A program made the position numbers and the translations under genes. Below, piece after piece: positions 13,394 to 63,900 of a DNA stretch of 64,000 nucleotides. The first letter of the stretch is position 1, and each line of letters begins with the position of its first letter. The notes under the pieces are model-generated. The model worked only from the letters and a program-made list of their open reading frames with translations, was not told the DNA's origin and made no database searches. Location: contig OZ210885.1 in assembly GCA_964658305.1 (NCBI GenBank), forward strand, positions 25,048,001 through 25,112,000, given 5' to 3'. The stretch is from Leptogorgia sarmentosa (taxonomy: Eukaryota).

Positions 13394-13653
13394 AACAGTA
13401 TATAGAACCTTTACAAATTATTCAAATAAGAACAATATTATTATAATATTATATATATATATATCATTTCTGTTTAATTACAATATCATTAAGTATATCA
13501 ATAATAAACTATGTAAAAATAGGATTTAGCAAAATTGAATTTTTAATACAAATATATATTCAACCTGAGTATCAATGTTAATTTGCCTCTACATGACATA
13601 AGTTTTATAACTACCCAATTTTTCTTTAAAATAACTTTGCAAAAATAGATAGT

Positions 13654-25747: not shown

Positions 25748-27249
25748 AATCCTGACAGATCGCAAAATAAACAACATGCAAAATCCCATCATTTCTCCGA
25801 GGTTATTGGGCAGCCGCTTACGAAGATCCTATATTTTCCCCACATGTTGGGCAAAATTTTCTTTCAATGTCTCCACAAAGTTACTAACTCACCCTACTAT
25901 GGCCCGGGGTCCCCCCCCTCGGGGAAGCCGATGACACACGCATTAACTTACATGGGAAATCCCCAATGTAAAATGCATTAAAATGCAGACTGACTTTTCA
26001 TTGCATTTCATATGTTCTGTTTCCTTTTTCCAAAAATGTCTGTTCATGAACAATAACTTAAAAGGAGTGTGTTTTTTTACATTTTCCCAAAACCTTGCTT
26101 TGCAAAAGAAATAGCCTTATCAAAGTTTGTTTTAAAGCTCTCATAGTTAGAATGCGCGACTGGGATATACATAACCATAGGACAAGTATTTGCTTCAGGC
26201 AACAATTTGCCAGTTGAATCTTCAAGATAATCCACACTTAGCTTTTGTGTAGCTGCTGAAGGTAGTGAAGGATAGTTTGTCCAAAACTGTACCAGGTCAT
26301 ACAGATTCTCCTCATTACCATCTTTGTCTACAAACAAATTCAGGAAAACTCGGATCTTTTTATTGAAATCAAACACAAAATGCAAGAATTACATGAAGTT
26401 TGAAGATGGCTCTCTCAAGCCAATCAAATTTGTGTAACATCTGTTTTCTGTATTTGATGTCATGAAAAAGGTCGATAGGTGTATGAATTTATTTCTGTAT
26501 TGGAGCATGTTCACCAAACTCACCTCTTCCATCCAGTTCTTCAATGTGCTGATCAAGCCACATTTGGGCCTGTCTGCAGTTTTCATCTGTTGATTGAGAA
26601 TACTCCAAATGCCTTTTTGACTCACAGATACTCCGCAGGAATATTTGTGAGTCTATGCTATCGGTCTAGCTCTTCATTAGTATTCTATTGTTTTATAATC
26701 CTCCAGCCTGCTTTGCGTGCTTGATAAGCATAAAACCTGGCAGACCAGTTTGAAAATTCTCTTGATGTTCCTCGTGTTTTGGCGTTCAGAATAAAATACG
26801 GTGAGTTTTTTATATGTGCATACATTAAATTGCATTTGTCAATGTGCTTAATTAAACAGTGCATTGTTTACATGACCTTTGAATATTCTTGTCGGTTGAA
26901 TCGGATTTTGTTCTGACTTGGAGTTTTGCATTCACGTGTGCTGACGAACTCGTAATTTCTTTGTTTTTATGTAAAAAAGATCAAGTCATACTTCAAGAAG
27001 TTCAACCAGGAAGCACGGTAAATTATAAGATATAATATTAATTGCAGCAGTGATTTTGTTTACTATTGAAGCAAAGACCAAAAAGTGAGAGACAAAGTTG
27101 ACGACCTTAAATTGTATTCCGTAATTTGTATCCGTATCCATTTGCCTAAACATGAGTGATTTGAATATTGTTTGTGTTGCAGCTGGTGGTTGGAATGTTT
27201 TCCTACCTGTTGGTAATGAGTTAAGTTATGAGACAATGAGTAACAGTTT

Positions 27250-30200
27250 GATGTTGGTGGGGATGGTGACTGTTTTTTTAAAGCTGTTTCACACCAATTG
27301 TATAACAGTCCTGATTATCACCAAAATGTTAGAAAAGCAGGTATTGATTATATTTGTGCACACCCAGAACAGTTTATCGAAAGCATTGCAGGCAAGTCAT
27401 GGTGTGAGTATATAATTGATATGTCACATCAAGGCACTTGGTGTGATGCACTTATGGTACAAGCTGTTGCTGATACTTTAAATTGTATAATTGACGTTAC
27501 TGAGTCAGCTGTTAATTTCAGTGAGACAGCTATTGTTCATCCTACAAATAGCATACAAAATCCAAATATTATATATATAGGTCATTTGGGTGAATTTCAT
27601 TATGTATCAACGATAAGTATAGTGAGACCTGAAAAAAAACTTGACCGTGAAAAGCTGAGTAAGTCAAGATGGCCAGGCATGAGAAAAGATGTGAGTTTGC
27701 AACATTCGCAAAATACAAAAAGTACCTTTCCACCTCTGAACTGTTACATAACAGAAAAGAAAACAAAAAAGAGGCAGTTGAATACCAAGGTGAAGAGTAG
27801 CATTGAGAAGAGACAACGAGTTGTTGCTAACAATAAGTTTATCGAATCTTTTCACAATAGCATTGAATGTGGCCCTGAATATATTTGTACTTGTTGCGAC
27901 CAGTTGTGGTATAGGTCATCAGTACAGCTTTGCAATAGTGGCAAATATAACTTGTGTAGCCCAAACATGATAAAGATGTGTATTACTGATGTCAAAAGTG
28001 TGAATAACAATGAGTGGATTTGCAATAGTTGCCATTCAAATTTGCTGGCCGGTAAATTATCTGTGTTTTCAAAAGCAAACAACATGAGTTTTCCTGAAAT
28101 TCTCAATTTGACATCATTAGAAGAAAGAATAATATCACCACATATTCCTTTTATGCAGTTGTGAGAACTTCCCAGAGGAGGTCAACTGAGTATACATGGA
28201 AATGTTGTTAATGTTCTAGCTGATGTGAATACAACAGTTAATTGCTTACCAAGGCCCTTGAATGAATTACAAACCATTCCGTTAAAACTCAAACGACGTA
28301 TTGCATACAAACATCATTATTTGTTGGAAAATATAAGACCATTGAAGGTTTTAAAAGCAGCATTTGGTTATGGTTAAGTATTTGGTTGAGACTAGTCAGT
28401 TATTTAAAGATGAAGGTATTGATATTGATACTTCCTACCTTGATACATGCAACCAATATAGCAATGAAAGTCACCCATTGCAGTTAAATATCAATGAAGC
28501 ACAGTATCAAGAATTTGGGCAGTTGTGTGACGAAACTGATCTGTGGTCAGAAGTTGAAGAACAACCATCAGGGGTGATGGATACTTTGTTGGTTGAACCT
28601 GATGTTACTCAGGATTATGATAAAATCCTCAGTTTTGCACCAGGTGAAGGAAACAGACCTCTTGGGTTGTTTGTTGACCAAAACTCGGAGCACTTATCAT
28701 TCCCAAACTATTTTTTGTGGAAAGAAAAGATCCGATGAATGCCAAGTTCCTGTCCAATATAGTACAATTTGCAAATGGGAGTTGCGTAGTCGTGATCGTA
28801 GAGCTGCTGAATCAGTTCCCAATATTTTTTACAACCTGAAAAAACTCCAGATCAAGGACAGTGCTGACAGTTCGAAAGTGCAAAACAAAAGGTAAAAATA
28901 GGTACACAAAGTGTACATGTATCTGCGCCCATGTAGCTTGATGATCAAGTCTTATTTGTTTTCAGCTTTTCGATACACGCATCTTATCTGTCCCTAATAC
29001 GCGATCTGATAAAATGATTTACTGCTAGGGAATAGGCGAATAGCGCAAATACTAATTCCTTTCAAGACGTGAGGTTGTGTGGAGACGTATTCAATACTTG
29101 ATATAAGCTTTCGTGACTATCTCGCATTCCGGAATTCCCGCGATCATATATCAAATTGCATAAGGAATTGAAACTTGACGACATATGATATCGCATTTTA
29201 TGTTATTGCGTCTTTAAAATAGACACAGCGCTTTGCAATTGTTTGTGAAAAATGTGGCTCTCTAAAAACCAAATTTACCCTTTTCAATACCGTATCATAA
29301 TAATATATTTATATACAATATATTCCGTCCATTCATGCGGATTTGCGTAGACGCTAAAGTGTATGTATGATCGGTATGCGCATTGCGCGTAGGTTAAAAA
29401 CAGAATACTTGAAACTATATATGATTTCGTTTGTTTTGTCTCGCGTTTAATAAACGCACAAACCCGTTATATTACAAGCTACGAAATCTATTTTCCTGGG
29501 ATTGAATGTTTCAACCATTCCGTATGGCGAAGCGTCAAAATATAGTGGATATTCCGTGATCACAATGACACCGCGGGCAGTCCAAACATGTACAGTGTGT
29601 GAGTGCGACAGTACCGACACGCTAAAGTATCGCGCTAAAGTATCGTATGGAAAATATACGCGCTATTGTGTCAAGACATTAAACTCTTTCATAACCTTAA
29701 ATATTCGCTGTGTTCAATTGTATTAATTGCGTCATGATATTTTTGCTTTGATGATCTAAATTGCATAGCGAACGCGAACCTCTTTAATTAATATCTTTAA
29801 AAGCAATGCCAATGTCTGCAATTTGCGTCATGATATTTTTGCGTATAAATTTCCTTAGTATAAATAGTGTTCTAAACGGCGTAAACGCTCATAAATTAAC
29901 CTCTATTTCACTGAAGTCACTCGTCGCTGCGAACATTATATTTTCTTTTTATCTGGATATTCATGCGAAACAAAATCCACAATCAAACACATCACCACTC
30001 TTTAGCTCGCGCCTATATCAGCTGCCATTTTGTAATATTTAGCCCGCAAGAACTGCTTTGCACACCTTCACGTTGGTTCCCTTAAATTTGTGGGTGGGCT
30101 CAGTGAGAATTACATCATCTCAATGTTACGTTGTCGCCTATTGGCTAAATTTAACTAACGAATTCGCTGATTGGCTGCAAGTTAACAGCTAACAACTAAC

Positions 30201-30348: not shown

Positions 30349-33300
30349 GAGGCTGTCTCTGTAAAAATCACCCACTGAATTTTAGTGCAAAATTAGATTT
30401 CTCTTATAAGCTCATTTTTTGTTACTTTAGCCATAACTATTACGAAAACGAGTTACATTTCATTCATAAGTCTATTTTGACATTTTCAGGATGGATACTA
30501 AGATAGGAGTAGGCAAGTTCAATTATCACAGTTGAAAATTGGAAATATGACTGGTATTCTCGTAGCTATAAAACAAGCGGATTTTAATTTAAAACCTTAG
30601 TTTTTATACAGTTTATACATTTGGTATAGCTGAATATCTGGACGTATTATTGTTGAAAATGTGCCTCAGAATTCTTCAGAACCAGCTATAAACTTACAAC
30701 ATGTAAACTGGTTTTTGACAAAACGCAAAAATATGACTACTTCAAGAGCCAATTTTAAAAGTGTGGCACCTATCTGAAGCGCCTGAATTATATAAATGGA
30801 AACAATAAATAACCTGTAACTCAAAACCAGAATCAAATTTTTCTGCATGCGAGGTTAGGGAAAATAACAGTCGCCTACAAATCACAAAATATTCAAAATG
30901 TAGTGCCAACCGACAGAGTATGGCCGTCGCAAAGTACTATGTAATTCGATTACAAAATCACTTACCTAGCCATAATGGCCTGTAAGTTGAGAGTTCTGAT
31001 CTCCGTGTGACATTTTAAATCAAAGATAATGTCACATAAACTGAAATTTTATCCACTGGCATGATGTTTGTAAATAACTATTAAACGAAGCTCATAAAAT
31101 TATGAAGTAAAGTACAGATATCCGTCGAACTCGCATGCTTTGTTGGCCACAACGAGCTTGCTTGCTTGATTCTGACGGAAAATGAAGCCAAAGACATCAG
31201 ATAACCACAATTAATTTATCTAAGGTCCTAAACACGTATCAAATGCAAAATAATTGCATCAAACGGCTTTGAATATGGAAAGCGGAAGTAAAGTTAACAA
31301 TAATGTTTGGTTTACTTTTGCAATTTGTTTCCAGGCCCTTAGTGAATTTATTTGAAGGTCAGCATATGAGGTTCAGTTACAGTTATGGAGCCAATCTGTT
31401 CTTTCTCTGAGCTTACAAAGTCGTCTTGTGGAGAATTTCGTAAATCGCCGAATATAGTGCGTAAATTACTTGAATGTAAAGAAGACATAACAGGTCATTT
31501 GCAAGCATGTCGCCTTTCCAGGCTAGTTGGAAAAATCCAGGAATATGAGCTAATCCTTGTAAGGGCAGGAATATTTGATTTCCCCCCAAACCAGCTGGAA
31601 AAGATGTGGATTTGTCCGAAGCACCGGTACAACTTGGGTCGTAATTTGGGCGTCCTCTAAGAGCGTGTCAGTACCCTCTACACTCTAGCGCTAAAAAAGC
31701 GTTGAAGAATATCGACGTTGTCACCCTGCAGATGTATAGGCATGCGCAAAAAAATTTTGGCGTCACGGTTACAGTAGGTTCAGGTAAAGTTAATTTGGGT
31801 GATGCTCTGACATGTTTATTAATGTATTTTAATGTAGAGTGGGTATGCTTATGATCCCATGCTAAAAAGACAAGAAGATCTTGTCCAAGGCTGGCGCCCC
31901 ATGCCCGTGTATGTTTGAAGATTTCTTTCAGTGCGTTTTGGACAATGTTGCAATAGAAGGAAATATGTAATTATGTATTTTCTTCTGTACACCTGTTTGT
32001 TCTTCTTGTCTTAAAAAACATACAAAGAAGTTCGAGGAAAACCAAGGATGGATAGAACTAGAAGATCAAGAAAAAGGTAAAATGACAGCAGATTGTCTTA
32101 ACGACCAATCACGGTGAGACGTGCTATACTTGAATAAAACCTCTGAATAATTGGAACAGTAATTTCACTTAACTTTAATATAGGATAGGACAGGCATAAT
32201 TGCTAAAAAATTTGCTGAAATGACCATGAGCAACTTCAAACCCTGGGAAGGCACCCCAGTTAAACCAAAGACTATGCCTGTACCTGTACCAGCTGACTGG
32301 ACTCCAGGGCAATGGACGGGCGAAGACAGTGGAGATTCTGAAAAAGAATACCGTCCAGGTGGAGAAGAGAATGATTTGTTGATGTTCCAATACAATGAAG
32401 CAATATCTAGTTTGTCGGAGAAAGTTAAATTTGGAAAATTCACCCCTTTGACATTTCAATTAAATACAACATGGGAGGAAGCATCACAGGAGGAAACGAA
32501 ATCTGCATCGATAAAGCCATGGAAGGATGCAAGTTCGTATGTGACGTAATAGCAGGAACTAGGGCAAGATGATAATTGGTCAAAAGCTATAAAGAAGTCT
32601 CTGCTGGACGGTAAACTTTACTTCAAAACGCAATACTGTAATCATTGCCAGGATTCCGAGAGCCCTTGTCCTGATCATTGCTTCAAGTTAGGGCTTAGTG
32701 ATCCCAAAAATGCAGACTTGAATGAAACATGCGCACATGAACATACAACACGTTGAAACCAATGTGATAACATTTCTACATGCATTAACAAAATAGAGCG
32801 AGATATCAAACACAAAGGTCTCGCGTTTTACAGTAAGGAGCAACAAGAAGACATCGTTTATGATTTTGAGCAAGCTGCAAAAGCTATTAAACAGTGGAAA
32901 GCACATATCATGTGGAAAGCACATATCATGCGGACAGCAAATCAAGAACGCGCTAAACAAGATGACCTTGCAAAGCTTGACTGCAGTTCACGATTGGTCG
33001 TCATGGATTGGCCGATGAAGTTTCTACAGTTGTGCTACCGTGAAAAGCAAAGCGATTGGTATGGGAAAAGAGGACTTAGCTGGCATGTTAGTAGCGTTGT
33101 GTCACGCGATGAACATGAACATGAACATACAACACGTTGTAACCAATGTGATAACATTTCTACATGCATTAACAAAATAGAGCGAGATATCAAACACAAA
33201 GGCCTCGCGTTTTACAGTAAGGAGCAACAAGAAGACATCGTTTATGATTTTGAGCAAGCTGCAAAAGCTATCAAACAGTGGAAAGCACATATCATGGGGA

Positions 33301-34222
33301 CAGCAAATCAAGAACACGCTAAACAAGATGACCTTGCAAAGCTTGACTGCAGTTCACGATTGGTCGTCATGGATTGGGCGATGAAGTTTCTACAGTTGCG
33401 CTACCGTGAAAAGCAAAGCGATTGGTATGGGAAAGGAGGACTTAGCTGGCATGTTAGTAGCGTTGTGTCACGCGATGAGTTAACTAAGAAATTGCAAGTC
33501 ACCACGTACACACACTTATTCGACCAATGTACGCAAGATTGGTTCGCGGTGGCGTCAATTATTGAGCACCTGCTAACGCATTTGAAAGCTAAACACCCCT
33601 CGCTTGCAAGTGTCTATTTTCGATCTGATGAGGCAGGGTGTTATCACAATAACTTGTTGGTTGCTGCAGTGAGAGATATTGGAGAGAGATGTGGAATAAC
33701 CATTAAAAACTATGATTTTTCCGAGCCCCAAAGTGGAAAGGACATATGCGACAGGATTCTTTGCCCGCTAAAGGCGTCCATTCGCGAACACTGTTCTGAG
33801 GGTCATGATATTTTGACAGCATCAGACATGAAAGAAGCTTTGAAGCAACATCCTGTAAGTGGGACGTCACCTTCAGTAAACGTCATTGACAAGTCAAGGG
33901 AAAGTCTCAAGGTGAACAAACTTGACAACTTCGGTGCGTTCCATAACTTCCATTTTGAAAGTTCAGGAATTCGGGCATGGAAAGCTTACGGTATTGGTCC
34001 GGGAAAGCTTACGGTATTGGTCCGGGAAAGCTTTTTCCGTTTAAACCACTGTATGTGAAGCATCAGGGTCCAACTATGCTTCAAACAGAGGGTAATGATG
34101 CAAAGCATTGGTTTCATTCGGTCAAAGAAAGAGATTTGAATCCAGAGCGAAAGAAACAACCAACCGCGAGCGAATCACTTTTCGAGTGTTCTGTGGCAGG
34201 ATGTGCCCAAGCTTTTGCATTG
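30349..34222 (+). mobile_element. Sola3-like transposon, 3'-truncated, with transposase pseudogene (about 31386-34222)
   Basis: Starts TTAA|GAGG. Motifs MWICPKHR, VMDWAMKFL..REKQSDWYGKRGLSWH, RSDEAGCYH and FSEPQSGKDICDR. Confidence 0.78.
32736..33477 (+). repeat. Tandem duplication (about 360-385 bp) inside the Sola3 transposase
   Basis: CATGAACATACAACACGTTG...GTGTCACGCGATGA occurs from about 32736 and again from about 33120. The translated segment repeats. Confidence 0.9.
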
Positions 34223-39860: not shown

Positions 39861-40675
39861 AATTTGTAGATCGGATGTCTACGACCATACCAGTAGGAAA
39901 ATACCGGTTCTCGTCTGATCACCAAAGTTAAGCCTCGGCGGGCAAAGTTAGTACTTGAGTACTTGGATGGGTGACCACCTGTAAATACTTCGTGTCGTAG
40001 ACTTGGTAGATTTTACTGTATGTGTGTTTGCAAATAGCTTTGCTTTCAATGTAAATTTCACGGATTTTGTTATTGCTACATCTGGGAATACTTTCTATCG
40101 TTGTTCTGCTAAATTTTATTGTTTGCGTATTTGTAAATATCATTGCTTTCAATTTCAACTTCGGGGTTTTGTTATTGCTACCCGTTTAAAAAGTGTAACT
40201 TCCATAAACGGATCTCTACGAACATACCCACGCTGGCGCGAACTAGCTGTAGATTGGGTCATTTCCGGTTGACTTCTATTATGCAATGCGCCCGGGATCG
40301 AGTTTGGGCAAGAAAATCTGTGCTAACCCGCATTTCCTGTCTTTTAATGAGCCCTTGTAAGTACGGGTAATATTTAGCTGGAAATGGCGGGCAACAGGAA
40401 GGATCTATTGAATGTGAGCTACACTATGATATGAATTTCGCCTGTGTTTTCGCCTCAAATCGTCTGATATTCATCTATGATTGAGAGCGAAATTGTGCCT
40501 CTTGGTGTGCAAGATAATTCAAAGTAAGTCATTCAAGATATATTTGTGGGGTTTTGAAGATCAAATATAAAAATTCAAAATCATACGAATATTGTATGAT
40601 ATTTTTTCTCATTAAAAATGTATTTATTCATGACCAGTCGTGCTTGACCAAAATTTTAAATCAATGCTTTTTCAG

Positions 40676-43600
40676 AGCACACGGCACGGCACAAAGTAAC
40701 AAGAAGCGTAGATTTAATCTTGGAGAATATCAACGAGTGAAAAAGCAAGTCATAGAGAGTGATTTACTAAAGAAGGCTCTAAATGAACAGAAAATCAAGG
40801 AATCCAGACTTCTGTTGCAAAATCAAGAGGCTGGGCTCCAGGAAATTGCTAAGAAATTGCATTCTACTCAGGCACTTATATCGAAGAAGAAGCGAAAGGT
40901 ATATATTTTCATGTATTATATAATACAAAAGCCCACAAACACATCTTGGGGGGGGGGGGTTATTTATATATGTGCTAAATACTATGTTTTAATAATTAAT
41001 ACATTTCATTAGATTGATCAACTGAAGGAAAATGATTTAGTGGGCAACAGCATTGATTGTTCTAAGCCAAGCAGAATTTTGGACTCCTCTAGTGAGAAAT
41101 TGGACCTATCCAGATCACAACAAAGTAGAAGGAAACAAAAGACTGTCGCAGCTATGAAAACCATCCATTGTGGAACAGATATGAAGCCGGATGAAAGTTT
41201 AAAGTCTGTGAAGGATGGGTTATGGACAACTTTAATCGGAACATGTACAAATTCTGAGTTGTCATCCTATATATCGCAATCAAAATTGTGTACTGGAAGA
41301 ATTTTACCTAGCATCGTTAAGGACAAATGCAAAGAGTATACAACCAGCCAATCGAACCAACTAAGAAGCATGCGTGTGCTGTACGAAAGGGGACTTATAG
41401 GAAAACGAAAGTATACAAGCATTCGTAACAGCTCTGATGTGGTTACTGCGACTGGAAACAAGAAGAAGAACAAAAAAGCAGAGATACTTCCAGGATGTGA
41501 AATTCCAAAAATCCTACCGTACAAGAATGTTACAAAAGTTATTAGAAGTATCAACATTGGGGAAGTCATTGGCCTGGAAAAGTTAGCCACTGAGCTTTCA
41601 CTAACACCAGTGCCTGGAGTATACCGACCATTAAAGCCATTTCTCCTTAGGCTGGCTGATCTCTACCTATTGGTTGATGAAAAAAATCCTTGCCTTCACT
41701 GGTTTAATAATGCAAAAAATGTCTTTCATGTAGCGGTTGGAGCAGATGGAGCACCTTTTGGTAAAGAGGACACTGCAACTGGTAAGTATTTCAATTTTCA
41801 TTGCAAGTAAACTAACATTTGAGGATGGAGTATGCAATGATGTAAGGCAAGCTCAGTCCAAGAAACGTTAATCAAAGTAACTGCCATATAAGCCAACTGC
41901 TGGACATTTTGCATCACAGTTATTTTGTTCTAATGTGGCCTGCCTATTGCTAGTACCGTATTGAATTAGCGAAAACTTGGCTTTATCAAATATCTTTTTT
42001 GCTGAAAATTAACCTGCCTTTAACAGATTGACCCGATTTGTGTGCATTCGTACACACATACAAATTTATTGGTAATATTATTAATAACAACTTTGGTTGG
42101 GAACAAGTAGGGAAATTCCCCCCCCCCCCCCCATCCCCTCCTCCCCCCCCCCATCCCCTCCTCCAACAAAATTTAAACAGCAAAATTTGCAGGAAAGATT
42201 GAAACAAGGAAAATGTGGAAACTATTTTTAAAATTGGCCAAAGTTTGTGTTTTCTCTCAAACCTGAATACTTAAGCTTACCACTATATATGTAAATGTTG
42301 CAATAAAAGAACATTCTATTAAATTGTATTTTAGCATATTTGGTAAGCTTCCCTAATCTCCTGCAAGGGGTTCAAAGCTGTACCAACAACCACCTGCTTT
42401 TGGGGGCCGATTGTGCTGAAGACCATCCATTGATGATGAGCTATACTAAACGGCTAACTAAAGAAATGGAAGAGATGGAAGCAACGCACCTGAAAACCGA
42501 GAGAGGACATGAAGTGTCCTTCAAATTTGAGCTGGTACCTGCTGACCAGAAGTGGGTTGCACTCATGTCTGGAGAACTGAACAACGCAGCAACCTACTTC
42601 TCATCTTTCGCTGATGTCAGCAAAGATACCAAGAACACAATGGGTGGTTCAATTGGTAAGTCGGGAGGGACTTGGCAACCATGGGACTATAAGGGGAGAC
42701 TTGAAATAGTTAAAAAAGTGGAAAAATTCAAGAAAACCCTAAAGGATCCGGTTGGCAAGCAAAGAGGTAAAGTTACTGCATTCATTGCAAGTAACAAGTC
42801 ACGACAAGAATTTAGTCCACCTCTCGGAAAATATGTTGATTCCATTAAAGCTGAACCCCTACACTGTACAAACAATGCATGGCAGAATTGGTTCACACTT
42901 GCTTTGGCAATAGCCATGCAGTTTACTAGTGAGAGCCTGCTCAAATCTGCAAAGTCACTGTCAGATTTGCCAAGTTCGTCTGCACTTTCTAAATTCATGG
43001 CATGTGTGAAAACTGCCGTAAAATGTGGACGATTATTCAAGAATTTCTCTAGATGGTTTGCTGAGAAGAGAAAGAGTGGTATTAACTATTGTTTCAGATT
43101 CACCGGATTAGAGTCAAAGAAATTTGCATGGAATTTTAGTTTCCTTGTCCAAGAATTGCTAAGTATTGATGGAATTTCAGAACAAATTCAAGTTAAAATT
43201 CATGCTTTAGCGTTCGTTGCACTTCAACTGCGAGATTCTGCGGCAATTTACAGCAGAGTATCCATTGATGCAGATTTAACTGAATTATTAGGTGTTAAAT
43301 GCAAACAGTATTTCAATGCCAGTTGCTTGTTTTTTGGAGTAAATCCTTCTGTTTGGTCAATTGGTTATGCAATTCCTTACCACACCAGACAGCTATTTGA
43401 AAGCACTGGGTTTGGTTTAGGACTGAACACGATGCAAGGGCGTGAGGCCAAGCACATTAAATTGGCAAGATATATCCAGAATACATGCAATGTCAAGAAG
43501 GACCAAAGATGGTGGATTGTGTTTCGGCATGAGTTTATTTCATTGGTTTGGCTGAGGGAGCTCGATCTGCTCAGCATTACTTATCATCAGAAATGTGAAA

Positions 43601-43785
43601 CTAACCTTAACCAAACATATGTCCCAAGGAGGGTTTCATGCGCAACAGAGGATTACTGCAATTGCGGAAACAAGAAATCGAGAGAGCAGAGTAAATGTTC
43701 TATCTGTGACAGCACAATTATGCAGCTAATACGGCAGAGTGCTGTTAACCAAGGAGTTGTCAGTGACTTAAGAAAAATGTTATAA
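40676..43785 (+). CDS. Spliced RAG1/Transib-like DDE transposase (over 800 aa; first exon uncertain)
   Basis: Exons 40676-40898, 41013-41781 and 42335-43785 join in frame via GT-AG. Motif order is GADG, PADQK, AEPLHC, RFTG, PYH, GLGLNTMQGREAKH, with a C-terminal CxC..CxxC. Confidence 0.7.
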
Positions 43786-44639
43786 ACTGTTATATATGTG
43801 TGTGTATTTGTTTTATAAAGTATGTTAAATTAAAATGATGCCTTGGAGCATCCTTCAATCAGTTTATTCGCATTATTTATTTCATTTCGATTGACATTTT
43901 GTACCCACAAATCAGATATATTTACTAGTGCTTCAGAAAATCAGTACATGTTTAGTGGCATCTAAACTGCTCATACTTACGCTCGACTGAGTGCATCGAC
44001 GGTGACGTTATCCAGAGGCAATAATATGTACTGCAGTTTTCCTCAGTCCAAGTAAATATATGTGTTTTATATGGCAATTTTAACTTCTGGGTCAAGTACA
44101 TGCAAGCTTTCAAATTGATTGGCTACTGAGTAATAATATATTTCAGAAATTGTAAAAGAGGTCCTGAAAAATATACTGATTAATTCCTAACAGACTGATT
44201 TTGTGTTTCTAACAAGCATAGATCAGTACTCTTAAAGCAAGAAGCCATCAAGATCAGATGTCAAAAGTACCATGTATTATAAACTAAATTATTATAATTA
44301 CAGCATTAGCCCTATAACCGTTGATGCTCAACACTTTCCCTTAGCAATTGATGAGATTAACCACACTATATATATATGCATACATATATATAGTGAGTTA
44401 GCTGCAATATATGCTTTCTTTGCTGTTTCACTCTGTCTGACGCCAAACAACTGTTTTATTCATCAAAGAGAATGCGTTCAGGATCATTGGGTTGATATTG
44501 AAACTTTCAGTTTAATGATGCAAACTAACCCATTCACTGTTCAATATATAGTACTTATGCAAAGCCTACTGTCTACAGTGATAAGCCTATAAAAACACAA
44601 CAGATTTACAATTCCATTTAGCTACAACTTTCTATTATT

Positions 44640-45318
44640 TCAATGTTGTGGTACCCCAAAAATATTCCAATAGCCATAGTAAAAGTGCACTGAAAGTACC
44701 TCTGAGTTTTTATAATACTTCAATTTTAGTGGTTTATCACTGCTTATCACAACTTCAGACCTTTCCAATGACCCTTCTACTGTGATTGGTAATCCCTTTC
44801 AGAACATGGCGCAGGATCAGACTTTCAGCATTCATATAATCAAAAACAAAGCGTGCTTTCCTTATATTCTCGATCGAAATATCAACGCAGGCAATCGTTT
44901 CTTTGTACGTATGGCCATAACTATTTCTTTGGATAATATGCTTGCAAATAATCTCAAATATTTCTCTTGGGATGTCCATAGTAAAATCACCTCGCCGTGG
45001 CGAACAAATGTTGGCCGAAGATCGCAGCTTTCGACAAATTTTAGAATGTATCTTCTGAAGTGCATTTATGACCATACTTCTGCTGGCTACAAGGTGTTGA
45101 ATTCCAGGTAATTTAACCGCAAGCTTCAAGTATTTCGCCTCCAAAACCGCTAAGGCTGCTTCTGCTTCACTGTAAAAGCACGAAATGTTTTGATGTGCAT
45201 CACTACTTTTTGTCTGGCAAAAATACTCATGTTTTTGCCGATTAAATAGCGCGTTTACTTCTTTTGTTGGCGGGCTATTTCTAAACAGATAACTGACAGC
45301 ACTGCTGGAATTCGCCAT
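44640..45318 (-). pseudogene. Second, convergent gene of unknown function in the CAC element (one frameshift)
   Basis: ORF MANSSS.. (45318-44755) continues in another frame as RSEVVISSDKPLKLKYY..FYYGYWNIFGVPQH* to 44640. Confidence 0.6.
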
Positions 45319-46063
45319 TTTGAATAATACAATCATTTTGCCGCTGATCTCATACTAACTGGAACGGCGAATGACACATTTTCCGGGGGTTTGGCGCCAG
45401 CGTGCCAGTAGGAAAATACCGGTTCTCGTCTGATCAACGAAGTTAAACCTAGGCGGGCGAAGTTAGTACTTGGATGGGTGATCACCTGGGAATACTTAGT
45501 GTCGTATACTTGCTAGATTTTGTTGTATGTGTGTTTGAAAATAGCTTTGCTTTCAATGTGAACTTCAGGGATTTTGTTATTGCTACATCTGGGAATACTT
45601 TGTATCATTGTTTTGCTAAATTTCACTGCGAAAACACCGGTTCTCGTGCGATCATTGAAGTTAAGTCTAGTTAGGCAAAGTTAGTACTTTGACGGGATGA
45701 CCATCTCGGAATACTTTGTATCCTTGTTTTGCTAAATTTTATTGTATGCCTATTTGTAAATATCATTGCTTTCAATTTCAACTTCGGGGTTTTGTTATTG
45801 TTACCTGTTTAAAAAGTGTAACTTCCATAATCGGATGTCTACGATCATACCAGTAGGAAAATACCGGTTCTCGTGCGATCACCGAAGTTAAGTCTAGTTA
45901 GCGAAACTTAGTACTTTGACGGGATGACCATGTGGGAATACTTTGTATCCTTGTTTTGCTAAATTTTATTGTATGCGTATTTGTAAACATCATTGCTTTC
46001 AATTTCAACTTCGGGGTTTTGTTATTGTTACCTGTTTAAAAAGTGTAACTTCCATAAACGGAT

Positions 46064-46183
46064 GTCTACGACCATACCAGTAGGAAAATACCGGTTCTCG
46101 TCTGATCACCGAAGTTAATCCTAGGCAGGTGAAGTTAGTACTTGGATGGGTGACCACCTGGGAATACTTTGTGTCGTAGACTT
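46064..46183 (+). rRNA. 5S rRNA variant or pseudogene (one of the best-preserved copies, 120 nt)
   Basis: Full length, with terminal helix GTCTACGAC/GTCGTAGAC and recognisable internal control region sequence. No immediate oligo-T terminator. Confidence 0.7.
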
Positions 46184-49123
46184 CCTACATTTTATTGTAT
46201 GTTGATTTGTAAATAGCTTTGCTTTCAATGAAAACATCTGGGATTTTGTTATTGTGACATCTATAAAAAGTGCAATTTCCAACCAGCATTAAGTCTAGTA
46301 AGGCAAATTTACTACTTTGATGGGATGACCATCTGGGAATACTTTGTATCCTTGTTTTGCTAAATTTTATTGTATGCCTATTTGTAAATAGAATGCTTTC
46401 AATTACAACTGCAGGGTTTTTCTTATTGTTACACGTTTAAAAAGTGTAACTTCCATCAAGAAATGTCTACAACCATACCAGTAGGAAAATACCGGTTCTT
46501 GTCTGATCACCGAAGTTAAGCCTAGGTGGGTGAAGTTAGTACTTGGATGGGTGACCACATGGGAATAATTCGTGTCGTAGAATGGCTGCATTTTATGGTA
46601 TGTGTGTTTATAAACAGCTTTGCTTTCAATGTAAATTTCAGGGATTTTGTTATTGCTACATCTGTGAATACTTTGTATCGTTGTTCTGCTAAAGTTTATT
46701 GCATGTGTGTTTGTAAATATCATTGCTTTCAATTCCAGCGTTTGTTATTGTTACCCGTTTAAAAAGTGTAACTTCTATAAACGGATCTCTACGATCATAC
46801 CAGTAGGAAAATACCGGTTCTCGTGTGATCAACGAAGTTAAACCTAGGCGGACAAAGTTAGTACTTGGATGGGTGACCACCTGGGAATACTTCGTCTCGT
46901 AGACTTGTTACATTTTATTGTATGTGTGTTTGAAAATAGCTTTGCTTTCAATGTGAACTTCAGGGATTTTGTTATTGCAACATCTGGGAATACTTTGTAT
47001 CCTTGTTTTGCTAAATTTTATTGTATGCCTATTTGTAAATAGCATTGCTTTCAATTACAACTGCAGGGTTTTTCTTATTGTTACACGTTTAAAAAGTGTA
47101 ACTTCGATCAAGAAATGTCTACAAGCATACCAGTAGAAAAATACCGGTTCTTGTCTGATTACAGAAGTTAAGCCTAGGTGGGTGAAGTTAGTACTTGGAT
47201 GGGTGACCACATGGGAATAATTCGTGTCGTAGAATGGCTGCATTTTATTGTATGTGTGTTTATAAACAGCTTTGCTTTCAATGTAAATTTCAGGGATTGT
47301 GTTATTGTTACTCTACGACCGTACCACTGCGAAAACACTGGTTCTTGTGCGATCACCGAAGTTAAGTCTAGTTAGGTAAAGTTAGTACTTTGATGGGATG
47401 ACCATCTGGGAATACTTTGTATCCTTGTTTTGCTAAATTTTATTGTATGCGTATTTGTAAATATCATTGCTTTCAATTTCAAATTCGGGGTTTTGTTATT
47501 GTTCCCGTTTAAAAAGTGTAACTTCCATAATCGGATGCCTACGACCATAGCAGTAGCAAAATACTGGTTCTCGTCTGATGAACGAAGTTAAACCTAGGCG
47601 GGTGAAGTTAGTACTTTGACGGGATGACCACCTGGGAATACTTCGTGTTGTAGACTTGCTAGATTTTATTGTATATGAGTTTGTGAATATCATTGCTTTC
47701 AATTTCAAATTCGGGGTTTTGTTATTGTTCCCGTTTAAAAAGTGTAACTTCCATAATCGGATGCCTACGACCATAGCAGTAGCAAAATACTGGTTCTCGT
47801 CTGATGAACGAAGTTAAACCTAGGCGGGTGAAGTTAGTACTTGGATGGGTGACCACCTGGGAATACTTCGTGTCGTAGACTTCCTACATTTTATTGTATG
47901 TTGATTTGTAAATAGCTTTGCTTTCAATGAAAACATCTGGGATTTTGTTATTGTGACATCTATAAAAAGTGCAATTTCCAACCAGCATTAAGTCTAGATA
48001 GGCAAATTTACTACTTTGACGGGATGACCATCTGGGAATACTTTGTATCCTTGTTTTGCTAAATTTTATTGCATGCCTATTTGTAAATAGCATTGCTTTC
48101 AATTACAACTGCAGGGTTTTTGTATCTGCAAACGCAGATACTATGCTATGATCTGTCAGCTGTTAGCTTCTAGCCAATCAGCAACGAGCTTTTGCTTATA
48201 ATTATGTAATGCAAGATGGCGGCGTTCGAGGAGTGAAGGCAATGTTCGATCGGATTTTTGCGAAAATGTGAAGTGCAGTGTTTAAGTACGACGGTTCAAG
48301 CAAACAATCTTGACTTTGCAGGTCCGTGTCAATGTGTAGTTGTAATTTAACAAAGGATTTGAAACGGCAGCGTGCTGTTTTATCGGCCTTTCGATTTGTA
48401 AATTGAAAATGCGTACAGAGCACACTGTCCAGATGGCCGACCCATGAACAGTTTTGTCACAGCACGCTATATAAAAACTGGATACATTCTGTTGAAGAGC
48501 CGAATCAGCAGCGAGCTTTTTTGTCTACGGTTTTGTTGTTCCTGTTCGCAGGTTAAGTCTAATCATATTCAAGATGGCGGTTCAAAATTGAAGGTGAGAA
48601 ATGCTGTACATAAGAACAGTCAACACTAACTGAACATCGCATATTTGATAGGACAGCATGCTGTTTTAGGAAATCTGTTGGAGTATAGTTCTAGGTTTTA
48701 ATGTTTTGTAATATATCGTTTAGTTATTTAATATATAAATCTACAAACGTAATTGACAAAATTGGATCGTCGCATTGAAATTTTAAAAAAAAATTATACT
48801 CCAGATCAAGAATCTCGCATTGTTGCATGGATTCCTTTTTCAACAAGCCACATTTTGGCTTTTGCTACTGATGACAAATTGCTTAATAATTTTTTTGGAA
48901 AGTTTGCAGTAAAATGAAATCAAGTAATCAACCACCCAACCTTACCCATATACAAAAGACAAACAAAATGTGTTTAATTAAAATATAGAAGTTTATTTTC
49001 AAAAATTTCAAACGTTATAGTATTTACATTTCACATCAGGAAAAAAACTAAAATAAATGTCTTTTAATAACAGAATATGAATATAGGCTACTGAAAAAAG
49101 TTCCAAGTCTATAGTATATTACT

Positions 49124-50146
49124 TTATATATTATTAACGTCAACAACCAACTTCTCATTGTTGTTGTATGTCAGTTCCACTGCGCCAAGGAGAAGCAAAG
49201 CGTCACTTGCATCATCTAATGAAGAGCACGATATTGGTGGAGATTCGGGCCTGGCAGCGTTGTAGATATTCAGCAACCGTTGAAGGATCTGTTCGAAGAA
49301 GGTCACTGTTACGCGGGATCCATCATCACCAGACACCGAGACCTTACCGCTTACCCGACGACGACATGCAGTGGCCTTCTGACGACTCTTGCAATGTGGA
49401 CAGCTGACTAACGGTGGAATGGACTTGGGCTCTTCGAGGGAAAGGATTTTCTTTCCACAGGTTATACACGCGAGAAATGGGGACAGGAATTCAACTGCGT
49501 CAATGGTGGCTGATTCCATGGTGGTCAGGAACGATGAGACAACGGATCTGTCAACCGGTACATCTTCGAACTTCTGTTCGTCGCTGCATTGAAGAACCAG
49601 GGTCTCCTTTCTCATTGTCAAGTACTTTTATCCACCGTCGCGTATCGTTTCGACCAGCTTGTCCCAGATAGCTATCATTATTGAACCCGTGCTGTCGGAC
49701 AAAATGGCACTTTGCTTCACGAGTGGTTTGCCCTGGTACATCACCTCTTGCGGTACGCCGAGATACGTGATCTTGCCTTCGATGTCTACGATCTCGTTTG
49801 CCTGGACGTCATTCAATTCGTTGACTTGGACTTTGGCGACGTCCGATATTGCGGCATGGTCGAAATTGCACTTTCCATCGCCAATTCGCGTCCGTTTATT
49901 CATTATGACGTCTTCACCGTCCGAGATGCGGCTTCGCTTTACCGTGTAGTTCTCGATTTTACACGGTTGGCAGCTCTCTTCTTTTGCCTTCAGCATTTTG
50001 TGCTTTTCCAGTGAAAAGCACACTGCTCGGACCGTCTCGTCCTTCGTCTGTAATTTCATGTCGAAATATTGACAGTTGGTGTCGCTCCGTTTAACGGGAC
50101 TCACGCTGTGGACGTAGCAATTCAACTCCGTGTTTTTTGGATTCAT
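49124..50146 (-). pseudogene. RPA1-like multi-OB-fold ssDNA-binding protein with C4 zinc ribbon; one frame break
   Basis: CYVHSVSPVK..YFDMKLQT..RAVCFS, LSDSTGSIMIAIWD and CITCGKK..CPHC. Stop/frameshift at about 49625. Confidence 0.8.
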
Positions 50147-52946
50147 CTTCTTCTATCATATGCTGAACAAGTGACGATGGACAGAGTGGACGTATATTTA
50201 TATTCACTTGTCACGTGAGGTTAGGGTTGGACAACCAATCACTATACCTGATAAAAATATCAATTGCCAAGGGTTTCACCATTTTCCCACACTATCAAAA
50301 ATAAACTCTAAAATTTCTCATAGGAACACTGCTGTCATTGACCAAAAATAATGGGTTATAACTCAGTATGTATTTATAGTGCTATTTGATCAGTTATCAT
50401 ATATATATATATATATATATATATTAAATCATATATATATATATATAGGTATATATATAACAGAAATAAAAAACACAAGTTACTTCATCAAATTAGTATT
50501 TCTATTATTAGTGCCATTCCTTCAGCGATACGTTTCAAAATTTAATTTTATTCAATTAGTGAATAATTTTGAAATGAAATAGCAGAAGTACAAATGTATA
50601 CTCATTCTACAGAGGTGATCAAAAAGGGTGCACCTCTAAATATCATATGTTTCGCTAATTATTCAGATTCTGCGCGTCAGTGATACGCGGAAATTTATGA
50701 AATATTATATCGCATTAAATATTATTTGAAATTCAAAGAGACCACTGTATCAGTAAACTTCTATCCACTAGTGATTCGGGTAAACCACATTAACTAGGCG
50801 GTAAGCAAAAACAGTAAAGTTATTTGGCTGCTCTAATTAAATATAACACATATGACACACATATCATTTAGCTGATCATTCTTATTTCTCTCTACACCAA
50901 AAATAGAAAACTATAGATAAAAATGACGCTCCCATATATACTCTATAAAAATAGGTTCTGGGTAAAATCTGTACTATATATATACCATGCAAGTTATTTG
51001 TGTGCTGTAAATAGAACACATATGACACACATATATGTTTAGCCGATCATTCTTATTTTTTGCACATCAAAAATAGAAAACTACAGATAAAAATGTCTTG
51101 ACGCTTCCAGTTCCATATAATTATACTCCATATAAAAAATGCATAGACTGAAAATGGCGCTACTTATATTGATACAAACATATACAGTTATAAAATTAAA
51201 TGTAGGTTACATGGGTGAAATCAGTACCCGATATACACGAATGTTTTTTCGGTGTTACATGATTTATAGCTATATAATTATATTTTGATCAGTTTTTGTG
51301 CAGAATGAATGCACATGAAATTGCACATGATTTAGGAAATCAGGCAATTTCACCAAATAAATTTTCACCAAAGATACTTTAAATATTTTGAAAACTATGA
51401 TAGTTTTTCTATATACTAAGTTCTAAAATGAAAAAAAAATGCGAAAAGATTTTTATATTTTGTTCAAATTTCAAATAAAGATGATCCTGGATCAGAGCTT
51501 TGGACGGCGTTTTAAAATATGAATTCACACTTCAGTATGGGCATTTCAAAGTTCAAGATTTGAAAGTACTCTTCCTCCGATTTCAATGTAGTGATTTTTG
51601 TAGTGATTTTGTATACTTTTGTATTACGTGCGTGAATTGCTAACTAAATTAGTCACTTCATTTCGCACGTAATACAAAAAAATGTATACGAATTTGCCAA
51701 TTTCGCACGGTTATATTTTCAGTATTATACAATATTTCGCACCCAAACTTTGCCATTTTACTAATTTTGGGGTGTTCTTTAAAAATTTTGTCTATTATGC
51801 ATTTGGTCCATTATTAGAGTTTGGGAATAGTTTGTTAATTGTCGACAATTTCCGATTTAGCTATCGTAAAAAGCTCGGAGTGATATCGATAATACTCGAC
51901 TTTCAAAAGCAATTATCACTTGGAATTTGTAAAGGCAAAAGTCGTGTCCTCGTGTTCGAAGTTTCAAACTTTTTTTTGCTGATTTGGTAAGTGAAACATG
52001 AAATCTAGTAGATTTAGCAGTGTGAATTACATCACATTTTGTGCAAAACAGTCTCTTCGGAGATCAAAACAATCACAATTCCCAAAATCTGATGTAATTC
52101 ACATGTCAATAAATTCAGATAATTTTCATTGTCAGCAAAGCCATATGTCTAGACCTTCTGTACGGAAATTAACTAAACAACTGAATGTGAAGCGATATAG
52201 AGACCGTGAACCTTCCAGGTTACCCATAAAGAAGATCCCAGCTAGCACGGACGTTTTCCGAACGTTGTGTCATGGTTGTGGTTTGGTTAGGTTGGACCAA
52301 ACATTCACACAACGTTGTCTAAACGTTATTGGAACGTTCTTTTTTTTCGTAATTCACAAACGTTGGAAGAACGTTGTCGGGACGTTATCTTTGCTCGTTA
52401 TATTGAGATTGAATTACAAATGATACACGATATATTCTTTGAACATTGTCACAACGTTAACAGAACGTTCTCATTTTACGTATTTCACTAACGTTAGTAG
52501 AACGTTGTCAGAACTGGGAAGTGGTATTTTTTGAACGTTGTCACAACGTTATAGGAACGTTAATATTTACGTATTCTACTGACGTTGATAAACGTTCTCA
52601 GAACGTCATGTAAAATCAGATTGAAAATGTGATATATAATGGGACATGAAATGCGTTTCTTCATGTTTATCAGTATCATATTTTATTAGTCACTGAGTTT
52701 TGTTTCCAGAATAATATCGATTGAAAAATGCTATATTTTATCATTATAAAAGTTATGAGAATATTTCAGCTAAAAAGTCGTTTTCAAAACGTTACCGCGT
52801 TGACAGAAAAAGTTTGCCGTTTGGACCACACTTTGCAAGGTAATTTTGATATTGCCTCGAGATTAATTTTTTGAGAATTTAAAATTTAAATTTAAGAAGC
52901 TAGCTTCCAGCATTTATTGATTAAATCGGCAAACCGCGCGTTCCGC

Positions 52947-54805: not shown

Positions 54806-55540
54806 ATAACAAAATATACTTGTAGTTTTAGTAAAAAAAGCTCTTTCTTGACAAGGAAATTTATTTAGTGCCGAGAGAAGTAAAATAACCTGGTGTTACA
54901 CATAACTGACAAAAGTAATAAGATTCATTCATCTGGATAAGATAGAGTAAAATCTAGGGATTCACTAGACTTCACTACGTAATTTGGTCGTATATTGAAA
55001 ACACGTATACGACATTATGACATCACACTAATTTATGCTGCTTATATGCCAAAAGCTCCTGACTAATTGACCGCCTGACATCCACATTCTACTAACAAAC
55101 TGATTAGGTTATTTTACCAGTGCTTACATAGGAAGGGTAATTATAGAGTGAAAATCAGTTGAAAAAAATGTTGTGCAACTTTCTTTCAAAAAAATATTGT
55201 TTTAGCTACTCAGAGTCAGGAAAACATCTACACAATCAAACTGCAATAAGTTAATGATTTGACATTGTTTGCAACTTCCAGTCTGAAAACATGCTGCCTG
55301 TGTGCATATAAAATTTACTTGTTTACAAATTATCAGACAACAGATTGGCTTTGCTTATTTAAGTAAATAAACTGTGGATGGATGTTCATTAATTTAATAG
55401 TCACAGTCACATTCCCTAATTAAAACTTGAGGCTCTCAATAAAATTGTTTAGTATTAGACAATATGTTAACAGAGTAAAGGATTGAGCATTTAAAAATGT
55501 GAAAGTCTAATTGCCAGTGTTTCCATCTATTACAGCCAAA

Positions 55541-57521
55541 ATGAAACGTAAACGTTCTCAGTACCAAAAAAATTGGGTTGCTGCGACTCGAGCTTTGAAA
55601 GCTTCCCATAGCAGAGTGTCAACTACCTATGATAGTGACGAGTCTGATAGCACTTCTGTACATGACACCTTTCCTGGCGTTTATCTAGAATCAGACGTGG
55701 GGCAAAACAATGCAATTGAACAAGTCCAACCTGAAACCAGTAACGAAATTGCAAAACAGGAAAATTTAGTTTTTCAGTATGACAATGGGGTTGACTTGAA
55801 TGCAGTAGGTGACAGCAGTGACAGTGTTAACGAATCATCAGATGAGGATTGTTCACTAGATAGTGTTCTTTCAGACAGATTAGCAAATTGGGCTAGTAAT
55901 TTTCAAGTCAAACAAAATACAGTAGATAGTTTATTGAAGATCGTACAACAATCTGGGCATCCTAACTTGTGTGGCTCGGCTCGTGGGCTGTTAAAGACAG
56001 CTAGGGATGTACCTGTACAACTGAAGTCAGGCATGCAATATATATATTTTCCTATTGCTGAAGCCCTGGTTAAACATTGGAATAGATATCCAAGCAGCGA
56101 CATAGATTCAGCTGAATGCATTAAGATATCCTTAAATATAGATGGCTTGCCTCTTTTCAAAAGTTCATTAGCTTCTTTGTGGCCAGTGCTTTGCTCAATT
56201 GTAAATTTCCATCACATAGCTGTTTTTCCTGTTGTGTTGACATATGGGTCTTCAAAACCTAAAGATTTAGAGTTTCTGGAGGACCTTATTAGGGACCTTT
56301 GTGAGATTTTAGAAAATGGTGTGCAGTGCGGTAATCGAAATGTTAAAGTTTGTATGAGGTGTATAGTTTGTGATGCACCAGCAAGAGCATTTGTGAAAAG
56401 TACCAAGCTGTATTCTGGTTACTTTGGATGTGACAAGTGCTGCCAGAGGGGTATGTGGAGTGGCAGGTTGCTGTTTCCTCTTGTGGACAATGTTGTTCTT
56501 CGTACTGATTTGTCATTTCGTCAGCAGTCCAATCAAGAGCATCACAGGCGTACTAGCCCATTCTGTAGCATTCCCAATATTGATATGGTCAAACAGTTCC
56601 CTATTGACTACATGCATCAGGTTTGCTTAGGAGTGATGAAGAAGCTTCTTTTGCTTTGGATCAGGGGTAAGCGTGAAGTGAGGATGTCAGCTTTGAATGT
56701 AAGCATGATTAGTGAAAGATTGGTTCACCTAAAACCTTACATTCCAGCTAGTTTCGCACAAAAACCATGGTCCCTTAGCAAGATTGATAGGTGGAAGGTA
56801 ACTGAATTTAGACAGTTCCTTCTGTACACAGGCAAAGTTGTCTTAGATGGTATTTTAAGGAGAGATCTTTATGATCACTTTCTGTCATTAAATGTTGCCA
56901 TTTCTATCCTAGTCAGCCCTCATCTTGCGAAAGAACATGCTAGTTTCGCCCATCAGTTATTAGAATACTTTGTGAAGCAAGGTAGTGTCTTGTATGGTGA
57001 TGAATTTGCTGTGTATAATGTGCACTCTTTGATACATTTAGCAGGAGAGGTTGTGGAGCATGGTAACTTAGACAGTTGTAGTGCTTTTGAAGAAATTTGA
57101 AAATTACATGCAAAAGTTAGAGAGATTCCTGCGTTCAGGTACTAACCCAATTGTTCAAATTGCAAAACGATTGAGTGAACTGCCTTGTGGAAAATTCCCG
57201 TCAACTGGGGAAGCGAAGCGAATTGACGTAAAGATTCCCAACAACTCTTTCAGCTTAAATGATGCATCCTGTTGTGAGGTGGTTGAGTGTTCAAGTGAGA
57301 TTGATGAAGATCGAGGAAAAATCTTTCTCTGCAGAGTATATTCCAACACAATCCCCCTTTTTGAGAGTCCGTGCGATTCGCGTATAATTGGTGTCCACCA
57401 CGCAAATCAAAGGCATACAACGATGAAGCTTCTCCCATTTCAGTTGTTGGAAACAAAGGCTATAAAGATTGAGTATGGTCCAGCTAAAATTATTTTCATG
57501 GCTATGTTGCATTTGGTGTAA
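55541..57521 (+). pseudogene. EnSpm transposase, one frameshift near 57090
   Basis: LNIDGLPLFKS, VCDAPARAF, GYFGCDKC, PIDYMHQVCLGV, WKVTEFRQFLLY, YNVHSLIHL and SAF/FENY. Confidence 0.92.
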
Positions 57522-63219: not shown

Positions 63220-63900
63220 TTCCAAGTAAGCAAAAGAAAACATATATGAAAGAATACATGAGAAAGAAACATGCAGATAAGAGTTTCCAATCAAGAAGAC
63301 CATGTATTACATCTAAGCAAAATAAAAATATGTACATGAAAGAGTATATGAGAAAAAAACGTTCAGATGAGAGTTATCAAACCAGAACACCAACTGTTGC
63401 ATCTAAGCAAAATAAAAATATGTACATGAAAGACTATATGAGAGAGAAACGTGCAGATGAGAGTTTTCAATCCAGAACACCAAGTGTTACATCTAAGCAA
63501 AATAAAAATATGTACATGAAAGAATATATGAGAGAGAAACGTGCAGATCAGAGTTCTCAATCCAGAACACCAAGTATTGCATCTAAGCAAAATAAAAATA
63601 TATACATGAAAGAATATATGAGAGAGAAACGTGCAGATCAGAGTTCTCAATCCAGAACACCAAGTATTGCATCTAAGCAAAATAAAAATATGTACATGAA
63701 AGACTATATGAGAGAGAAACGTGCAGATCAGAGTTGTCAATCCAGAACACCAAGTGTTACATCTAAGCAAAATAAAAATATGTACATGAAAGACTATATG
63801 AGAAAAAAACGTGGACATGAGAATTTCCAGCCTTCAACACCAACTATCGCATCTAAGCAAAGAAAAAAACAATATATGAATGAATATTATATGAAACAAA
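63220..63900 (+). repeat. Coding 90-bp minisatellite (30-aa basic repeat), about 7 copies
   Basis: CATCTAAGCAAA recurs at 63310, 63400, 63490, 63580, 63670, 63760 and 63850. The unit encodes KQNKNMYMKEYMREKRADQSSQSRTPSIAS. Confidence 0.92.

Follow-up and report, generated by a model that had tools for sequence, protein, structure and literature searches.

A likely undescribed lineage of two-gene transposons with a predicted RAG1-type transposase in the coral Leptogorgia sarmentosa

The RAG system is thought to have originated when a Transib-like enzyme acquired RAG2. The closest described systems are ProtoRAG/RAGL, Transib and the CMCT clade (EnSpm/CACTA, Mirage, Chapaev, Plavaka, ESTA and Lanisha), and in a December 2025 survey all CMCT lineages keep two zinc motifs in the transposase, C(2)C and H(3–4)H (PMC12730594). 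Here we describe a 5176-bp transposon at positions 40229–45404 of a 64,000-nucleotide stretch of L. sarmentosa DNA (GenBank assembly GCA_964658305.1, contig OZ210885.1, 25,048,001 to 25,112,000, forward strand; hereafter the window). It is probably a two-gene, CACG-ended DNA transposon that moves by cut-and-paste and encodes a DDE enzyme of the predicted RAG1/Transib fold without C(2)C, together with an accessory partner, and the lineage to which it belongs, one of two-gene cut-and-paste transposons with a RAG1-type fold, is likely undescribed.

Termini, target site and mobility

Both ends of the element, which occurs as a single copy within the window, start with CACGCTGGCGC. Left and right ends agree at 13 of 14 places over positions 1–14 and at 8 of 9 over positions 27–35 (TGGGTCATT/TGTGTCATT), the chance of at least 8/9 at a fixed place being ~2e-4. 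Over 26 ends the consensus reads CACGCYGGG, a variable spacer and then about CAAAT-nn-GGCCATTT, with information of 0.74 bits at positions 22–26, 0.57 at 29–36, 0.23 in the spacer and <0.1 farther in; block 1 was partly chosen by the end-search pattern, and block 2 was not chosen by it. The bipartite termini were thus found again in other families of the lineage, and the CAC-initiated, bipartite ends claimed in the original prediction are confirmed. Block 2 is equidistant from both ends, giving a symmetric layout, and an asymmetry of the 12/23 type was ruled out on that ground.

The window copy is inserted at position 15 of a 5S rRNA-derived repeat unit, with CATACC ending the left flank and CCAGTAGG starting the right. 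Nine uninterrupted units are present in the window, six of which read CATACCAGTAG with a single CC, the other three being variants. Since the empty units carry a single CC, 2 bp (CC) were duplicated at this insertion, which we score as the target-site duplication (TSD). The units belong to degenerate 5S-derived tandem repeats at 39877–40003 and 45392–47881 (11 Rfam 5S matches; periods of about 227, 322 and 401 bp), likely a satellite or pseudogene cluster. The features of the element and its flanks are:

40214–40228, +, 5′ part of the 5S rRNA-derived unit split by the insertion, the host target (Rfam match, unit comparison)
40227–40228, no strand, left copy of the TSD, CC (single CC in empty units)
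40229–40264, +, left terminus: block 1 (positions 1–11/14), spacer, block 2 (about 22–36)
40382–40389, +, YY1-type motif, inward-facing (likely promoter or start element)
40477–40523, +, putative transposase exon 1 (start codon uncertain)
40676–40898, +, transposase exon 2 (the alignment with homologue P0097 starts at residue 20)
41013–41781, +, transposase exon 3: N-terminal helical region, D335 at 41745–41747
42335–43785, +, transposase exon 4: D417 (42544–42546), S436/A439, H696, E717 (43444–43446)
43657–43707, +, C-terminal CxC..CxxC of the transposase, in exon 4
44640–45318, −, gene 2, the partner (PF26709 family), single exon, frameshifted near 44810 (homologue comparison)
45313–45320, −, YY1-type motif over the gene-2 start codon
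45369–45404, −, right terminus, block–spacer–block as at the left end
45405–45406, no strand, right copy of the TSD, CC (unit comparison)
45407–47881, +, remainder of the 5S unit split by the insertion, followed by the array of degenerate 5S-derived repeats

Mobility was assessed by comparing the element with 8 of the 24 runs listed, all as assembled contigs. The window's own flanks reappear in runs X4 and X6. Elsewhere the element is joined exactly at its termini to two further left flanks (at 40229; runs X5, X6 and X10) and three further right flanks (at 45404; runs X4, X5, X10, X13 and X16), making three distinct left and four distinct right flanks in all. Copies are mostly 95–100% alike, and gene 2 is unbroken at the frameshift place in several of them. 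Several different flanks join exactly at the termini, and none of the further ones resembles 5S; the element therefore stands at four or more sites and has no specificity for 5S. It is mobile, and recently so.

Ten related contigs holding both ends were surveyed for TSDs. Those of L016, L022, L048 and L081 are 3 bp long, and over 26 empty satellite units prove that of L081; for at least three such matches among nine contigs, before L081 was added, the chance is P ~5e-4. The 2 bp of L023 was counted as ambiguous because L023–L029 have two left ends, the outer giving 2 bp and the inner (L025) 3 bp. The other five contigs gave none, and a 5-bp TSD was seen in 0 of the 10. A possible second 2-bp pair in the window's own family (left flank ...TT, right flank TT...) comes from different runs and may be due to chance (P ~0.35). 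Labels of TSD length are scattered over the tree and form no clades. Given the 3-bp TSDs of four relatives, the lineage therefore makes TSDs of 2–3 bp; the 2-bp TSD of the original prediction stands at the window site, with its empty units and single CC, and falls as a mark of the lineage.

Some relatives have structures of their own. A composite element at L023:2395–3240 (also in L026, L027 and L029) has two left ends with a partner-gene fragment between them, and the flanks differ only outside the outer end. A short partner-like piece lies upstream of the transposase in L014–L016 and L042. At L081:8397–16938 an 8.5-kb relative is present in full; its ends are CACGGTGGGCACAAG, its TSD is 3 bp, and it is situated inside a 294-bp satellite. 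It is the sole match in genome contigs and is filed in a metagenome-assembled genome labelled Anaerolineae; because it lies in a satellite and groups with animal-type copies, it is likely contaminating animal DNA, not a bacterial ancestor. Viral contigs and plasmids yielded no relatives.

The transposase, its zinc motifs and its predicted fold

Gene 1 is predicted to comprise four GT–AG exons, which splice to an 829-residue protein with no internal stops. The product is 58–60% identical to P0003, P0007 and P0010 over residues 110–829 and 38% identical to P0097 from residue 20, and homologue alignments span the joints between exons 2 and 3 and between exons 3 and 4. The DDE triad D335/D417/E717 is intact in the window copy; these residues are conserved in 117/121, 122/124 and 98/108 homologues, respectively.

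A word-seeded search recovered 193 relatives among 5983 candidates, and the profile search reached 3022 clusters at E 1e-3, 1933 at 1e-10 and 619 at 1e-30. Named relatives come from stony corals, octocorals, sea anemones, the nemertean Lineus and lancelets (Branchiostoma). No Pfam domains of the relatives appear among the 120 matches listed, 0 of 53 members match a Pfam transposase or RAG family, and searches of Pfam and of PDB sequences with the transposase, the PDB Transib chains included, gave nothing meaningful. The nearest named clusters in the Atlas search carry RAG1_RNase_H. Four distant homologues (P0217, P0223, P0225 and P0251) have a SAP domain and no C(2)C; two of them also have C2H2, and two of the four are named lancelet proteins.

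The zinc motifs set the family apart. Searched from D+10 to D+44 after the second Asp, a CxxC occurs in 0 of 122 homologues, and the C(2)C zinc site therefore appears to have been lost. At D+19 and D+22, where an EnSpm-like control open reading frame (ORF) of the window has Cys and Cys, the transposase has Ser and Ala (S436/A439), and the same residues are found in 105/125 and 96/125 homologues, respectively. The control, at 55511–57100, is truncated, matches Transposase_21 (E 2e-5) and has both C(2)C and H(3)H in their canonical form. As judged from the alignment, the H(3–4)H motif appears degraded in the family, with both His residues in 18/98 homologues and the second in 91/112; the window copy reads Y691-x4-H696. 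The C-terminal CxC..CxxC, a Cys4 finger, is 91–94% conserved, and before residue 370 H142 is the only conserved Cys/His column.

For the fold, a model was built with AlphaFold2 (AF2; pLDDT 94.5) on homologue P0003, which is 60% identical to the spliced window protein. Foldseek returned 49 matches at E<=0.001, and those listed are all RAG1, BbRAG1L or HzTransib, with E of 6e-14, 1e-7 and 6e-7, respectively. VIA ranks them likewise, with Z 26.2 for RAG1 (rmsd 4.2, 475 residues aligned), 21.2 for BbRAG1L (4.4, 475) and 19.9 for HzTransib (3.9, 428); the P element (12.7), ISCth4 (8.1) and Hermes (6.5) are weaker. Identity in the structural matches to RAG1, BbRAG1L and HzTransib, over model residues of about 96–665, is 10–13%, and since sequence profiles offer no link, the kinship is read from the predicted fold at that identity. 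The transposase is accordingly described here as having a predicted RAG1/Transib-type fold. The original prediction had proposed a RAG1/Transib-like core from an ordered motif set: the model matches bear out the core, and the motifs are all present in that order, though the Cys of PLHC is not conserved. That prediction had missed the loss of C(2)C, the strongest distinguishing feature, as well as the frameshift in gene 2 of the window copy.

The partner gene and the competing explanations

Gene 2 has a conserved start at 45318, with an upstream ATG at 45336. Eight nucleotides near 44810 are missing from the window copy and present in runs X1, X7, X13 and X16. Its 98%-identical relative P0121 has 234 residues, and relatives in general have about 207–235. 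PF26709 is carried by 87 of 88 partner homologues; all 88 with a species name are from corals. In the window and its relatives the partner lies downstream of the transposase on the opposite strand, tail-to-tail. A search with only four close homologues found it in 26 of 80 metagenome loci; once the profile took in the loci themselves, the count was 28/81, rising to 26/29 where at least 1.5 kb lies downstream and to 18/19 where at least 2 kb does. Many of the loci duplicate one another, and together they represent about 15 families. The identity matrices of the two proteins are correlated (Spearman 0.70, Mantel p 2e-4; 16 rows, namely 15 loci plus the window, with P0121 replacing the broken gene), and several clades are common to both trees. 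In two informative pairs the partner dN/dS is 0.18 and 0.29, dS being saturated in five others. The partner is under purifying selection and co-diverges with the transposase.

In the partner model (234 residues, pLDDT 78) four long helices lead into a domain of mixed alpha/beta type, and there is no propeller, and 0 of 24 members match a kelch family in Pfam. The protein is basic (pI >9 in 6/9 sampled members, about 9–10 in most). Foldseek against PDB and viral structures gave no match at E<=0.001, no chain of the 48161 compared by VIA reached Z 8 (best 6.7), and the partner's Atlas matches are all <0.9. Weak VIA rows (Z 5.4–6.4) over residues of about 115–225 include the RNase H3 N-terminus, RnlA, YwmB and Vif; the first three we take to be TBP-like, a lead only. 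A relation between gene 1 and gene 2 was also considered, and rejected after comparison. The second gene of the original prediction, tail-to-tail, unrelated to the first and free of kelch repeats, thus survives on each point.

At 16 of the 25 ends, inward-facing motifs of the YY1 type, as defined for and reported near RAGL ends (PMC7481187), are present in the first 250 bp, the expectation being 0.019 per 250 bp. They may be mere start context, because the right-end motif contains the partner's start codon.

By analogy with RAG and Transib, a transposase dimer would pair both ends, nick at the CAC, form a hairpin on the flank and insert with a 2–3-nucleotide stagger. The core would read block 1, and block 2 (about 22–36) would be read by the N-terminal helices, by the C-terminal Cys4 finger or by both; the C-terminal tail of BbRAG1L, CTT*, binds DNA of the terminal inverted repeat (TIR) (PMC7204232). 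The basic partner might bind DNA or the transposase in end pairing or target capture, and by the same analogy we put the chances of a role like that of RAG2 beside RAG1 at about even. The inward YY1-type motifs may drive both convergent genes. The window copy itself could provide transposase and would need the partner in trans.

What the data reach directly are the ends, the TSD, the several sites, the triad, the apparent C(2)C loss, and the partner's linkage, co-divergence and selection; the hairpin chemistry and the partner's role come by analogy. Several further points weigh against the reading given here. The fold is taken from P0003, not from the window's own spliced protein, Pfam and PDB sequence profiles link the family to neither RAG1 nor Transib, and EnSpm or Chapaev structures are absent from the PDB match lists and so offered no competitor. 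The C(2)C position was mapped via spacing, not by residue-level structural alignment. Half of the both-end contigs have no TSD, and L015/L016 and L023/L027 are evidently joined as chimeras. The window copy has a broken gene 2, and L051 has no partner (1 of 19 long loci); the Mantel set keeps two near-duplicate pairs and drops the fragments L010 and L035, and in the near-identical pair L057/L021 dN is about equal to dS, with few changes.

Three other explanations have to be considered. That the transposase acts alone, gene 2 being a long-retained regulator or anti-silencing passenger outside the transpososome, fits the partner's faster evolution (median identity 21% versus 40% for the transposase), its lack of an invariant column or obvious catalytic residues, and the restriction of its named homologues to corals, where the transposase reaches Lineus and Branchiostoma. 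Position and orientation are, however, fixed over about 15 families 33–41% alike, and the trees are congruent, as for a required, co-adapted partner. Non-catalytic helper genes such as TET/JBP do occur in transposons, yet TET genes swap between lineages (PMC12730594). We therefore regard a passenger as rather unlikely. Another possibility is that the element specifically targets 5S rRNA genes, as the window copy, at position 15 of its 5S-derived unit, might suggest. Dada elements target small RNA genes in this way. By inspection, however, none of the five other distinct flanks, two left and three right, is related to 5S, and L081 sits in its unrelated satellite; such targeting is largely refuted by the non-5S flanks of near-identical copies and must be considered very improbable.

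The element could also be a divergent member of a catalogued CMCT superfamily (Transib subgroup I, Chapaev/Chapaev3 or animal EnSpm) that secondarily lost its zinc ligands. It may already be in Repbase or Dfam, both beyond the databases searched; its partner already has a Pfam accession, PF26709; the predicted fold is RAG/Transib-like; and CAC..GTG ends with 2–3-bp TSDs fall within the CMCT range (PMC12730594), TSDs being variable even within Transib (5 bp, 3 bp and TA; bioRxiv 10.64898/2026.08.26.747230). Set against this, the family matches no Pfam transposase or RAG entry, while the EnSpm-like ORF of the window matches Transposase_21 and fails to align with the profile of the family; both zinc motifs are kept by every CMCT lineage surveyed; and a Chapa-type N-terminal Cys cluster is not conserved. 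The literature, too, holds no description of the lineage that we could find, Repbase, Dfam, Repbase Reports and most subscription journals being outside the scope. The literature covered includes PMC1131882, PMC8245031, bioRxiv 10.1101/2020.07.03.163634 and 10.1101/2021.09.26.461848. A motif search of the PMC9435367 supplement gave no match, a weak test as sequences there are printed in blocks. A catalogued superfamily thus seems unlikely, and the lineage of the original prediction, called possibly undescribed, still corresponds to no described family found in Pfam, PDB or the literature. Its proposed place between Transib and CMC is a conjecture.

The undescribed two-gene lineage of RAG1-fold transposons remains our preferred reading. 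In a stronger form, which is possible though doubtful, it would be a superfamily-level sister of RAG/Transib, still mobile in corals, that discarded the structural zinc site and independently recruited a non-kelch, convergently encoded second subunit; two-subunit transposases of the RAG1 fold with bipartite signals would then have arisen a second time. The preferred reading itself, a widespread and recently mobile lineage, would offer a natural comparison for what a second subunit adds to the RAG1 fold, for the need for the zinc site and for what sets 2-, 3- and 5-bp staggers. Thousands of marine invertebrate proteins now called 'uncharacterized' (3022 clusters, E<=0.001) would gain a function through it, as would the orphan PF26709.

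The window holds further ORFs. A Harbinger-type pair at 12389–14937 comprises a Myb/SANT protein (+) and a DDE_Tnp_4 transposase (−), tail-to-tail; it is followed by an 840-residue ORF with DUF4371 (15138–17660), presumably hAT-like. A 958-residue minus-strand ORF at 20461–24185 has a C-terminal PHD finger and otherwise no Pfam match; preceded by a 289-residue ORF with an NCD2 match, it is possibly part of another unclassified two-ORF transposon. A Tc1/mariner fragment, two OTU protease ORFs and RPA OB-fold ORFs, the last being of a kind we take to be typical of Helitrons, lie at 1106–1813, 27244–28164, 49124–50152 and 62075–62956. The ORF at 32757–34058, with an internal duplication and no Pfam match, is probably a transposase relic, and a tandem-repeat ORF (63363–63833) lies at the window end.

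Comparison with described systems

With ProtoRAG/RAGL the element shares the predicted RAG1 core fold (Z 21–26), the DDE triad, CAC ends with block–spacer–block termini, a convergent gene pair between CAC TIRs, a C-terminal tail that probably binds zinc, and motifs of the YY1 type close to the ends (PMC7481187). It differs in its 10–13% identity, in the absence of C(2)C, in having block 2 equidistant from both ends and in its TSD of 2–3 bp rather than 5 bp. The tail here is CxC..CxxC, whereas the RAGL CTT* is Cx2Cx3GHx4C, and the four ZnC2/ZnH2 zinc ligands required of RAGL are a set that the coral transposase lacks (both PMC7204232). The partner is an alpha/beta protein of about 207–235 residues, in contrast to the six-bladed kelch propeller of RAG2L.

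Transib has in common with it the fold (HzTransib Z 19.9), CAC..GTG ends and a cut-and-paste anatomy, and helices alpha11–12 of Transib subgroup I (PMC9435367) may correspond to two helices predicted after the second Asp here. The end is CACGC[CT]GGG, as opposed to the CACAATG-like heptamer, CAC alone being common; the TSD is 2 bp in the window and 3 bp in four relatives instead of 5 bp; and the conserved second gene, the loss of a zinc motif and the lack of detectable similarity to PDB Transib chains are further differences.

The CMCT clade resembles it in CA..TG termini, TSDs within 2–5 bp and the DDE triad (PMC12730594), as well as in a similar E-x-K-H motif region. Going by published descriptions, it is set apart from that clade by the absence of C(2)C in 122/122 homologues; the His pair is present in 18/98. 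Transposase_21, which the control ORF matches, is found in 0/53 family members, unlike EnSpm/CACTA, and the N-terminal Chapa zinc finger of Chapaev/Chapaev3 (PMC4411706) is absent. Two family motifs are missing from the ESTA/Plavaka supplement text (PMC12730594), which is a weak test.

As the Transib heptamer and 5-bp TSD, the RAG2L partner, zinc ligands and CTT* of RAGL, the C(2)C of CMCT, Transposase_21 of EnSpm and the Chapa finger of Chapaev were all found wanting, we file the element in none of these groups. The predicted fold, the bipartite ends and the convergent two-gene layout are likely the same as in the described systems, and what is likely new is a different partner and a transposase without C(2)C.

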